This document shows, in pieces, positions 17,706 to 26,364 of a DNA stretch of 64,000 bases. Origin of the DNA: Euglena gracilis (taxonomy: Eukaryota). A program made the position numbers and the translations under genes. The stretch lies in the NCBI GenBank assembly GCA_039621445.1, contig CP154954.1, positions 40,975,572 through 41,039,571 of the forward strand, written 5' to 3'. The notes under the pieces are model-generated. The model saw nothing but the letters and a program-made list of their open reading frames with translations, made no database searches and was not told the origin of the DNA. Within the stretch, counting starts at the first letter, position 1; the number at the start of each line of letters is the position of its first letter.

Positions 17706-19820
17706 CGTACTCCCGGAGGGGGCGGCGACCTCTTGAAGGGGGGACAGGTGTCCTTGCCACCAGGGAAAGGTCAGACAGAGAGACAGACACGCACGCACAG
17801 ACAGACAGACAGACAGACAGACGGACGGACTTGCATGCATTGATGCATGCATGCATATAGGTATGTATGCATGCATGATGCACGCATCATTCATGCATAC
17901 CAGGGCGTTGCTTACCTCTCCCCCCCTTGTCCAACGACTGGCCTTGTCCCCCGGTCAGTAGCGATCTTTTTCCAGGTGATCTTTTTTTCAGACGTTCGCG
18001 TTCTTTTTCTTACAACTTTCATGGCGGATTTTGTACCGAGTTAGCCAGCGGGAACCTATACGGGAACCTATGTGTTGGTGCCTTGTTGATTGCCGCACGT
18101 TTCTCCCTTTTTTTCATCATGAATCTGAGAGTTGTGGCCATGTCAGGCAAAGGAAACTTTTTTCTTCACCTTGGGGCAAAGCAGGAGGAAAAAAAATTGA
18201 CCCGGTCTTGTCTAACGGCCACCCCCCAGTCAGTCGCGAAAATAGCGACCCCCCCCCCGGTCAGTAGCCATGTTCAGCGGTCGTTGGACAAGGGGGGGGT
18301 AGAAAATTTGATCCCCCCAGGGGGGACCCTGCCAGCCAAGCCTTTTTCCAGCTGGCAGCCTTTTTCCAGCCCCGGACCCCCATCAACGAGATTGATTTAT
18401 TTCCGGCCGCCCGAAGGGTGGCTAGACAGCAACGGATTTTTCACTTCCAGGAGGTACAGAAATGGGCCAGAAATGGGCCAAATAAGGCTTAGAAAAGGGT
18501 TGGCAAGGGCAAGGACATCGTTTTTTTTTTTGCATAATTCTTAGGAGGCATAAACTGCCCAAAAATTTAAACCCCCTCGAAGCGGAAAAGGAAGCGGAAA
18601 AACGCTTCCTAAAATGGCCTGTTTTTTTTTAGGGTTTTGGAAGAGGTACCGATTTCGGCCATTTCTGATTACATGTTTGGCTTGTAGTAACGAAGTTTTA
18701 AAAACTCCGAAAACAAGCTAAAACGCCACTTAAATTTTGAAATTCAGCCTAAATGAACGAAAACCCTACAAAAAATTCAAAGACAGCAATAAAGTGCAAA
18801 CACACACCTCATGTCGGCTGCCGCCAGACGCAGAGGAAGACGATCCCCCCTGCAAAGGGGGGAAAATAATAAACACAAAATATAGGAAGCGGCAAAAATG
18901 ACATTCCGCTTCAAATTCATGCATAGGTTACCAAAATCGACAGCAGAAGAAACTTGACTGAGGGAATACCAACACAAACTGAATAAAATTTTCTTAAAAT
19001 GACAACGAAGCGGAAAACCGCTTTAATAGGAAACAGAAAAATTATGCAATAAATCAGATAGAAGTAGATGCAATTCAAACAGTGAATAATAATGCCCACA
19101 AACATTCGTTCAGCATTTCCGGAGGGACGTGATGAACAGGCACACACTGAGCAGTAATCAACGACATTAAGTACACACTACATACCGCAGAAGACATGAC
19201 AGCCAGAAGAAATGGTATACAAATGTAACAAACAGAACACTACACACCTGTAATCAAAGTCGTCGCCTGAGGTACCGGGCCATCGTAAGCAGGTAGGAGT
19301 GAAAACCTGCAAAAAACAAGCGGGAAAGTGGCGAAGCGGGTTTCCGCTTCCTCAAAGCAAGGCAGATAAATTTGGTCTAATTCATACTGAACTGTACTGG
19401 TCTGAAACTACCATTGCCAACATCACTAAACGAACTGAATGCAGAAAGTAGTGAGGTCTGTGAAACTTGAACTACCCAACAAATATAAATCCCGCCTGAA
19501 ACAGTAGTGAGAAGATGCATTGTATCCCGAAGCACCATTAACCGTGCAAGTTGCGGATTTGTAACTATGATTCTCAAAACAAAGGTCAGTGCTGGAACAA
19601 ACCCCACAGCCCCCAGTTCCGCAGCCATGCCAAAGACAAGCACAAATGACAGACACGGCGAAATGGGTGGGTGTGGTGTGGTGAAGGCGTGCGCATGGTT
19701 GGGGACTGGGTGTGGGTGTGGGTATGGGTCTGGGTCCAGTCCAGGTCTGGGTCTCGCTTGTCCCTCCCTCGCTGGCGGCACCAGCCGCCCGCTGCCACCG
19801 CGGCTGCCGCAGCCGCCCGC

Positions 19821-24900: not shown

Positions 24901-26364
24901 TCAACGTGGTCTCTCCTCCTTTTTATCTGACTCAGCATAAATGTACATGTATTTCTGTTACAACTGATTCATTTGACCTTCCGTTAACTTCACGACCAAG
25001 GATGTCCAATGAAGCGGTATTCCGCTTCATTAGACAGTTTACTTTATTTTCTTCGTTGTGCTTCTGTCTCACGTTCACGTGTGTTTTTGCTACATGTATA
25101 TTATCTTTCTGTATCTGTGTGTTTCATGGAGAGATGACAACGTTCATCGTTTGTGGATGTAGTAGTTTTTCTAAAACCTTTTTGTTCAGTCGCATCTCTC
25201 CGTGAATCTGCTAAAAATTAATTTCGGAAATCATCGAAGCGGTTTTCCGCTTCATCTGTTTTGCATCCGAAACGGTGAAAAAATTTCTGTTAACACGTGT
25301 AACTCGAAATTTTGGCCTTTTTTTGCAGTATTTTTTGGGCACTTTGGATGCCACTTCAGTCAGTTTTATCATGGGCAGTTTGCGCCTCCTAAGTAATTGG
25401 CAGTTTTTTGGACATTTTTATGACTTCATTTTTTTGCCCCCGGTTCGACCCCAAGTCCGGCCCAGCTCCAGCCTGGGACACCTATGGGGCGGGGAGGGAG
25501 GGGGTCAGCCAGCAGCCTTTTTCCAGCCAGCTCATGTTTTCCAGCCCCTGAGCTGGACCCCCCGGGAGTCCTAAGCAACTCCCTGATGCATACATACAGA
25601 CATGCATTCATACATACAGACAGAGAGACGGACAGACAGACAGACAGACAGATATACGGACGGACGGACGGACGGACAGATGGACATACACAGGGATAAA
25701 AGTGAATTTATTCACCTTCTTTATTCTCCTCTGAGTTGCATGTCAAACAAAACAAACACATGAAAGCCTTTCTTTTGCAGTTTGATTTTTTTCTTCTGTT
25801 TTTTTAAAAAAGGAGGAACCAATTGTTTTTTTTTGCCCCGGTTCGGCCCTGCGGGGTCCTGGAACGGCGCCAGATCTGGGCAAACTCGGTCGACCGGGGG
25901 AGATTCGGCACTTAATTAGAAGGATAGGGTTAGGGTTGGGATTGGCGCGCCGAAAATTGGCACTTTTGAGGGACCCAGTTGGGCCGGACAGTGGGTTCCG
26001 TTTTGGGAACATCCTTGAATCGCCCGTTTTTCCCAAAAATGCCCGAATTCGACCCAAATTCCCCCAAAATTCGCCCGCTGTGCAGCCGAACTCCTCCCTG
26101 AATTCCGAAACGGGGGAGGCCTCCGGGAATCCGGTCGCGACCCTAACCCCATCCCTAAAAATAGCCCGACTTTCGCCTGAGGGTCGGACGCGGGGGATGC
26201 TACATGGACCACTCCCCTGGAGCTACTATTTGGCCGGCGGGCCAAGTAGTAGCTTGCTGCGATTTCTTCGATCAAATTTTTGCAGCTGTCTTCATTTTTG
26301 GCTGCCGAGAGCTTTCGCCACTCCTCGTCCCCGTGGGGGTGGGGACCCGCTCTCGGCTTCCAAA

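Follow-up and report, generated by a model that had tools for sequence, protein, structure and literature searches.

Two of the closest described systems pair a site-binding protein with repeated short motifs. In ParB-parS, KorB-OB and Noc-NBS, ParB-family binders go with several copies of short palindromic cis sites. In the En/Spm (CACTA) transposons, the element-encoded, non-catalytic protein TNPA binds subterminal repeat motifs, and gene-less derivatives keep the ends and the motifs. Here we describe a 6854-bp element with terminal inverted repeats (TIRs) at positions 18540-25393 of a 64,000-nt stretch of the Euglena gracilis genome (GCA_039621445.1, contig CP154954.1, forward-strand positions 40,975,572 to 41,039,571; hereafter the window). 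The element, called the 6.9-kb element below, carries sixteen palindromic sites and a single recognisable gene on the minus strand, whose product is predicted to begin with a ParB-type module. An earlier note on this DNA had drawn attention to both features.

The locus resembles the ParB-type systems in its palindromic sites, in the predicted N-domain fold of a relative of its protein (Z 8.8-10.9 against ParB, KorB and Noc) and in a helical region that lines up over ~130-200 columns. Unlike in those systems, the element resides in a eukaryote, the gene model contains introns of the spliceosomal type, G-Q-H-[RK] stands in place of GERR, no ParA partner accompanies the gene, and no membership of a hidden Markov model (HMM) family was found for the protein. 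Moreover, the sixteen sites are spread over a 6.9-kb transposon and not clustered near an origin. The likeness to En/Spm lies in many short motifs in both orientations within a TIR transposon, presumably bound by its own non-catalytic protein, and in a gene-less derivative that keeps ends and motifs. In contrast to En/Spm, the ends read CTTAGG rather than CACTA, the target site duplication (TSD) is 5 bp rather than 3 bp, the palindromes run through the introns of the whole element, and the protein has a predicted ParB-like fold. With DndB/DGQHR and DUF262 (GmrSD, SspE) proteins, the protein shares an [SD]GQH[RK] motif after a strand and the ParB/sulfiredoxin (Srx) superfamily.

ParB-like accessory proteins in eukaryotic transposons are already in print, which makes the general idea less new. 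The Ectocarpus element Sola1-1_Ec32 is described as having a ParB-like/methyltransferase accessory gene, similar proteins are cited for green and red algae, and the authors propose that the accessory protein binds its own element (PMC12477816). Unlike in these algal cases, no methyltransferase domain was detected exon by exon in the protein described here and no transposase gene lies next to its gene; the protein also comes with an explicit candidate site array and belongs to another host lineage. Euglena is also mentioned in a preprint on retrotransposons that carry methyltransferases, but the word ParB is absent from it. Our full-text literature searches turned up no description of this kind of element, of a euglenid transposon with a ParB-like gene or of comparable arrays of sites. 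Within the reach of these searches, the novelty lies in the architecture, the host lineage, the family of ends and the explicit array of sites.

Transposon ends and palindromic sites

The earlier note had described 22-bp TIRs and a TAATT TSD. Direct reading agreed with this, with a TSD at both ends and 20 of the 22 TIR positions identical between CTTAGGAGGCATAAACTGCCCA and CTTAGGAGGCGCAAACTGCCCA. Both TIRs were also recovered by an inverted-repeat search and a pattern search.

18535-18539, no strand: left TSD TAATT, identical to 25394-25398 (direct reading)
18540-18561, plus strand: left TIR CTTAGGAGGCATAAACTGCCCA, 22 nt
25372-25393, minus strand: right TIR, 22 nt, reverse complement CTTAGGAGGCGCAAACTGCCCA
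25394-25398, no strand: right TSD TAATT (direct reading)

A 21-nt TIR pattern with at most three mismatches matched the window 4 times against 0.00 expected (none in shuffled sequence), and these matches formed two correctly oriented pairs, one bounding the 6.9-kb element and the other a second element of 2.6 kb. Chance falls far short of explaining two inverted pairs from a single end family, both flanked by perfect 5-bp direct repeats, and both elements thus show the TIRs and TSDs of a transposon. The stretch 18540-25393 is a copy of a class II TIR DNA transposon of the cut-and-paste type, from an unclassified family with ends CTTAGG..TGCCCA and 5-bp TSDs. We know of no superfamily that fits this combination.

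Multiple dispersed copies were indicated by many diverged RNA contigs and by near-identical database proteins (P0001 and P0100). At a threshold of at least 90% likeness to the window, 668, 1198, 108 and 1402 contigs from four RNA runs matched the two elements, most of them 90-99% alike. Several contig joints skipped internal parts of the element and adjoined palindromes (18610, 19024, 20540 and 25009). These may be deletion derivatives, or else the alignments may be anchored on the sole conserved letters; we did not use them as support. A weak joint from 18381 to 25394, found in one run with a shorter side of 26 letters, was too imprecise to mark an empty site. Outside the ends, a 38-nt direct repeat (AGCCTTTTTCCAGC...; 79% identical) lies at 18339-18376 and 25514-25551, ~160 bp from each end, so the 6.9-kb element may have inserted into another repeat. 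The element and its surroundings had no Rfam match apart from microsatellite-like microRNA matches below threshold at 17832-17898.

The palindromes fall into the following array, located by pattern search unless stated otherwise and listed without strand. Introns are numbered along the minus-strand gene.

18579-18589 and 18591-18608: half-site GAAGCGGAAAA, then palindrome 1 GAAGCGGAAAAACGCTTC (direct reading and pattern search)
18886-18912: split palindrome, GAAGCGG, 13 nt, CCGCTTC (direct reading)
19007-19024: palindrome with 1 mismatch
19333-19350: palindrome
20026-20042: palindrome with a 5-nt spacer, intron 7 (N5 pattern search)
20540-20557: palindrome, intron 6
21237-21254: palindrome with 1 mismatch, intron 4
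21985-22002: palindrome, intron 3
22864-22881: palindrome, intron 1
23405-23422: palindrome, 5' flank
23731-23748: palindrome with 1 mismatch
23976-23993: palindrome
24296-24313: palindrome
24617-24634: palindrome, stem extended to 13 bp
25011-25028: palindrome
25236-25253: rightmost palindrome

With up to two mismatches, GAAGCG-N6-CGCTTC matched 14 times in the 64 kb, and all 14 matches lay inside the element (18591-25253); 1.68 were expected, and the largest count in 100 shuffles was 5. Together with the 5-nt-spacer copy and the split copy, the full sites number 16, the half-site being extra. This agrees with the at least 15 'parS-like' palindromes of the earlier note, in which 'parS-like' holds as an analogy only. 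None of the palindromes lies in an exon of the gene model, five of the seven introns have exactly one, four lie in the 3' flank and seven in the 5' flank, where they are spaced 225-394 bp apart. Oriented by their A-rich centre, the sites have the consensus GAAGCGGAAAAMCGCTTC, in which the centre is conserved besides the arms. The presence of both orientations (8 minus, 7 plus) is as expected for double-stranded sites. The exact palindrome also occurred once each in five IMG/VR contigs, which we judged to be irrelevant single matches.

The second element of the CTTAGG-TIR family was found by pattern search and direct reading.

14404-17010, no strand: second element, TSDs included

The element proper spans 2597 bp (14409-17005) and is flanked by a perfect TSD, TAAGA (14404-14408 and 17006-17010). 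Its TIRs, CTTAGGCGGCGC[T/G]AATTGCCC, lie at 14409-14429 on the plus strand and at 16985-17005 on the minus strand. Nine GCGG-N4-CCGC palindromes (14463, 14883, 14975, 15155, 15187, 15214, 16546, 16670 and 16848) cluster in both subterminal regions; the site type is TAAGCGGAAAACCGCGCA, with sites of the form TRNGCGGWWWWCCGCGYA. No ParB-like gene is present in this element, as the family proteins match nowhere else in the window, and neither its open reading frames (ORFs) nor the other ORFs of the 6.9-kb element gave any family match. The summed depth over it in the RNA runs was several times that of its flank. This element is a high-copy relative without a gene, in which just the ends and the sites persist.

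The core that the two elements have in common, GCGG-NWWN-CCGC, matched the window 17 times against 0.19 expected, with 17 of 17 matches inside the two elements and zero in the remaining 54.5 kb. The palindrome thus goes with the element family. BLASTN between the two elements found nothing else in common. On the left, the outermost core begins 54 nt from the end in each element (18594 and 14463); on the right, it stops 143 and 146 nt short of the end (25250 and 16859). The A-rich orientation of the outermost sites is opposite between the two. With n = 2 elements, the matching distances are suggestive, not proof. The common core and the end distances speak for the sites being cis-acting components of the family and against a peculiarity of a single copy.

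This distribution bears on two explanations that need no binding protein. The sites might be functionless by-products, footprints or tiny nested insertions spreading in one lineage, as the genome holds other palindrome-laden repeats; we regard this as very improbable, because the same core and end distance are kept in two otherwise unrelated elements and are absent from the other 54.5 kb. Alternatively, the palindromes could act as hairpins, either as RNA stem-loops (in splicing, stability or small RNA) or as cruciforms or single-strand hairpins that promote recombination or replication. The stems are G+C-rich and 6-7 bp long, four copies extend to 8-13 bp with differing flank letters, and the rearrangement joints of related contigs often adjoin palindromes. 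However, no strand bias relative to the gene was seen (8 against 7), the spacer GAAAAM is conserved although a pure stem would not need it, and the sites also fill the gene-less element and flanks that look untranscribed. The joints, too, may be alignment anchors, since the palindromes are the only shared sequence. A hairpin role therefore seems quite unlikely.

The ParB-like gene and its predicted fold

The minus strand of the 6.9-kb element alternates between G+C-rich blocks (61-73% G+C) and A+T-rich blocks (34-54%), and a GT-AG model of its single recognisable gene gives eight exons and ~650 codons. All exons lie on the minus strand and come from ORF and splice-border analysis unless other evidence is given.

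23032-23125: exon 1, ATG at 23125
22667-22804: exon 2, ...GQVRRPRQEHVNDLITELKNNPPQELVLTVWPER, putative first half of the ParB N-domain (borders and alignment to relatives)
22128-22489: exon 3, KWVILSGQHRYLAA..., putative second half of the ParB N-domain and helical domain (borders and 99 database matches)
21291-21950: exon 4 with 220 codons, covering the last stretch of the helical part, a disordered linker and an alpha/beta-looking region without a family (borders; P0100 99% identical)
21100-21135: exon 5, tentative 36-nt micro-exon with AG/GT borders in phase 0 (sequence only, no RNA support)
20686-20916: exon 6, donor ambiguous
20104-20472: exon 7, borders ambiguous, Lys/Glu/Pro-rich tail
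19821-19904: exon 8, TGA stop at 19821-19823, acceptor 19904 or 19910

Exons 1-5 have unambiguous AG/GT borders with consistent phases. For exons 6-8, all 116 enumerated GT/GC-AG combinations stay open to the stop at 19821-19823, ending in ...MLVDDE, and the 40 combinations listed among these give 634-659 codons. The earlier note had spoken of an apparently intact spliced gene. The open frame was confirmed, and the peptide that it quoted is exon 2 joined to exon 3; the part concerning the splicing was matched by none of the RNA joints listed, as weighed below. Indirect support for the introns came from the relatives: among those that continue past the last exon-3 motif, 43 of 59 begin with Cys after Val, as results when a GTnTGy donor in that very place is read through, and those that hold the N-terminus show unrelated letters exactly at the position of intron 2. 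The eight-exon structure is thus putative, judged from sequence. Because the element lies inside an intron of an expressed host gene, its RNA cover may be host pre-mRNA; the contigs being unspliced, we did not take this cover as evidence of expression.

The protein family was defined by a HMMER search of exon 3 against 1.84 billion representatives (clusters at 50% identity), which returned 99 matches at E ≤ 0.001. One of these was 94% identical (P0001), and the rest were 28-57% identical; most were 100-300 residues long, being gene calls that cover one exon of intron-containing DNA. Three of the 99 (P0058, P0072 and P0094) are repeat proteins unrelated to the family and were excluded from the alignments. 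In an alignment of 45 sequences, G, Q and H were invariant, the motif reading SGQHR in 18, as in the window, DGQHK in 15 and other variants in the remainder. Both halves of the N-domain were carried by four relatives (P0014, P0049, P0056 and P0090), to whose N-termini exon 2 was 33-42% identical with the invariant pattern D..GQ.R...V..L...P...LT; BLASTP of exon 2 against P0049 gave E 7e-10. P0014 was 35% identical to the window over exon 3 and 38% over exon 2. Near-identical copies exist elsewhere, as P0100 is 99% identical to the exon 4 region and P0001 94% to exon 3. The gene family, as judged from these matches, is large, and the single-copy host gene that the earlier note had weighed as an alternative is not what was found.

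Searches against curated libraries were run exon by exon (Pfam, NCBIfam, PADLOC and PHROGs), and the window's own pieces matched nothing in them. ParB-like families of PHROGs matched two relatives weakly, at E 9.4e-4 for P0004 and 0.033 for P0090. Pfam matches of single members (VMAP-M15, fvmX2 and others) were dismissed as noise. A search with the N-terminal part of P0014 returned P0014 itself only, and a sequence-profile search of the PDB returned nothing significant, the best match being ribosomal protein S19e (E 0.06). No related loci were found with P0014 in metagenome contigs, IMG/VR or prokaryotic genomes, or with the family alignment in metagenome contigs.

The fold was predicted for P0014 rather than for the window's spliced product. 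AlphaFold2 with a 90-sequence alignment gave a mean predicted local distance difference test score (pLDDT) of 83.7 and a predicted template modelling score (pTM) of 0.74. In a Foldseek search of the PDB, the model was matched foremost by ParB-CDP, KorB and Noc, and also by sulfiredoxin, SbnI, a serine kinase and PadC. Rows 1-32 of the VIA comparison all belonged to the ParB/Srx superfamily, and the alignment to Myxococcus ParB (7bnr_A, with CTP-gamma-S) reached Z 10.9 at a root-mean-square deviation (rmsd) of 2.2 A over 95 residues. The model's helices 154-223 aligned to pNOB8 ParB, Noc and KorB over 132-151 residues (rmsd 3.7-4.5 A) and to phage ParB over ~200 columns. Among the viral models of BFVD, 19 matched at E ≤ 0.001, the best being a phage partition protein (4.8e-6, 207 columns); the length of this match indicates that the helices past the N-domain line up with ParB as well. 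After the central strand, ParB has GERR and Srx has GCHR, and the window has SGQHR in the same place, a motif of the G-x-x-R type.

The ParB/Srx N-terminus claimed by the earlier note was therefore upheld at the level of a relative's predicted fold. The DGQHR/DndB likeness stayed at motif level, as no NCBIfam or PADLOC match to DndB or DUF262 proteins was obtained and the VIA scores were low compared with that for ParB, at Z 3.0 for the DndBCDE-DndI entry and Z 4.5 for SspE. In predicted shape, the module resembles the CTP-binding domains of the ParB type more than it does DndB; given a predicted ParB-type fold and no membership of a curated HMM family, we file it under the ParB/Srx superfamily at fold level. 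According to this model, the first ~250 residues form a ParB-type module, comprising a ParB/Srx N-domain with an invariant G-Q-H for GERR, followed by a helical domain whose helices line up with ParB's DNA-binding region.

Candidate roles of the protein and its sites

We favour, with somewhat less than even confidence, the reading that the palindromes are binding sites for a dimer of the ParB-like protein. Such a dimer of ParB-type modules would read the 18-bp pseudo-palindrome on duplex DNA, and protein bound at sixteen sites along the whole element would mark, compact or pair it, in a manner like that of TNPA at the En/Spm subterminal repeats or of ParB, KorB and Noc at their palindromic sites. 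The cutting enzyme may come either in trans from an unseen partner or from the C-terminal half of the protein.

Several results weigh against this reading. The Pfam model ParB_N (PF02195) stayed below threshold, with 0 window exons and 1 of 90 family members (E 0.042) matching, where the intron that splits the N-domain lowers the power of Pfam for the window exons. No ParB, DGQHR or DndB model of NCBIfam matched the window exons or eight relatives at E ≤ 1, PADLOC gave none, and the fold belongs to the model of P0014. Among the joints listed from the four RNA runs, none fell on a modelled exon border, and the listed contigs traverse the introns. No transposase, integrase or recombinase family of Pfam or NCBIfam was found on any exon or other ORF of the element, in agreement with the earlier note, which had recognised no DDE transposase or recombinase. 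In addition, the flanks of the half-sites differ in the gene-less element (TAAGCGG..CCGCGCA), and because this element carries sites too, they could equally serve another, unseen protein.

That last point leads to an alternative in which the palindromes are the sites of a separate transposase from an unseen autonomous partner, and the ParB-like protein is an accessory passenger, concerned with chromatin or epigenetic marking or with anti-silencing. Ends and site geometry recur in the gene-less element at 14409-17005, the 6.9-kb element yielded no recognisable catalytic domain, and the ParB-like accessory genes published for Sola1 and other algal transposons offer a precedent (PMC12477816). However, no partner was seen within the one 64-kb window, which held the only gene-bearing locus sampled. 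Moreover, no methyltransferase domain was detected on any exon, and a ParB N-domain with its helical module is itself a plausible reader of palindromes. We regard this as the leading alternative, though less likely than the favoured reading.

The C-terminal part of the protein bears on the missing enzyme. Exons 4-8 are modelled to encode a linker, the alpha/beta-looking region and a Lys/Glu/Pro-rich tail. These ~400 residues matched no Pfam or NCBIfam family exon by exon, and no methyltransferase family at E ≤ 1 in Pfam. An exon 4 search returned nothing in 'longer' mode and one 99% identical copy only in 'near' mode, and the ESM Atlas gave no usable match for the region. AlphaFold2 on exon 4 as a single sequence reached a pLDDT of 44, which was unusable. 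A His-Me/DUF1524-like reading of ...LIHVVPMQS...DLRLLD... in exon 4 was dropped, as no Pfam match at E ≤ 1 was obtained, and nothing supported a degenerate methyltransferase reading of exons 4-6. No ParA-like gene neighbours the gene within the element.

The ParB-like protein might itself be the transposase, its ParB module finding sites and ends and its C-terminal alpha/beta region, or a nuclease-type N-domain, cutting the DNA; it would then define a new eukaryotic class. It is the product of the sole intact gene between the TIRs, its family is very diverse (99 matches among representatives at 50% identity), as transposase families are, and the 5-bp TSD and CTTAGG ends fit no superfamily known to us. 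On the other hand, no exon carries a nuclease or DDE signature, the C-terminal region has no relatives beyond the 99% copy although catalytic cores are normally the most conserved parts, and P0004, P0023 and P0046 continue differently past the ParB module. We consider this improbable. A bolder combination, a eukaryotic system of the ParB/parS type with nucleotide-gated loading of a ParB clamp at the sixteen palindromes, coating or bridging of the element or of an excised copy, and a transposase activity in the C-terminal half, is unlikely as well; if true, it would establish a novel class of transposase and the first pairing of a site array with a ParB in a nuclear genome.

Host intron, neighbouring repeats and implications

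Both elements lie within a host gene on the plus strand. An RNA contig without differences from the window joins 14016-14045, 17050-17190, 17564-17669 and 26499 onward. Its reading frame has an adenylate/guanylate cyclase signature, with Pfam PF00211 upstream at 12558-12974. The three host introns so defined lack GT-AG borders; the first holds the 2.6-kb element and the third the 6.9-kb element.

17670-26498, plus strand: host nonconventional intron holding the 6.9-kb element (RNA contig; borders ambiguous by 1 nt)

At this third intron, the RNA joins 17669/17670 to 26498/26499, CAG lies at 17672-17674 and CTG at 26490-26492, and the ends show a 9-bp pairing (CCAGGGCGG/CCGCCCTGG). Euglenid nonconventional introns are described as having non-GT/AG borders with a CAG at +4 to +6 that pairs with a CTG at -8 to -6 (PMC11282704), and the third host intron has this structure. 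Diplonemids have noncanonical introns too, so this structure by itself makes a euglenid host likely rather than certain.

Other repeats were noted in the window. A foldback-like element at 53030-53500 consists of two ~200-bp inverted arms, each with three copies of the palindrome TTTGCGCTTAAGCGCAAA at a 25-bp period, and has a related palindrome near its centre; it represents a distinct palindrome-laden repeat family. A tandem array at 40261-40721 contains ~25 copies of the 19-bp palindromic unit CCATCATG-ACC-CATGATGG and adjoins repeats of 163 bp and 216 bp. Telomere-like interstitial TAGGGT arrays of ~50 copies each lie at 57118-57301, 57906-59496 and 59822-59933, with 43-54-bp repeats on either side in which the G+C-rich palindrome GGGCCGCGGCCGGCCGCGGCCC occurs. 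An ORF at 44767-45162 on the plus strand matched the thaumatin family (PF00314, E 1.5e-7).

For the algal transposons, recognition of their own DNA by ParB-like proteins has only been proposed, and the present locus offers a testable pair for this idea, in which both the 18-bp site and the ParB-type protein are defined. The locus further brings to light a TIR family, with 5-bp duplications, CTTAGG ends and site arrays that persist in gene-less form, in a lineage whose DNA transposons are poorly described. The finding would gain greatly in weight if the protein turned out to be the transposase or a sliding clamp. Finally, both copies reside in introns of the nonconventional kind within an expressed gene, a location relevant to the debate on whether such introns arose from transposons.

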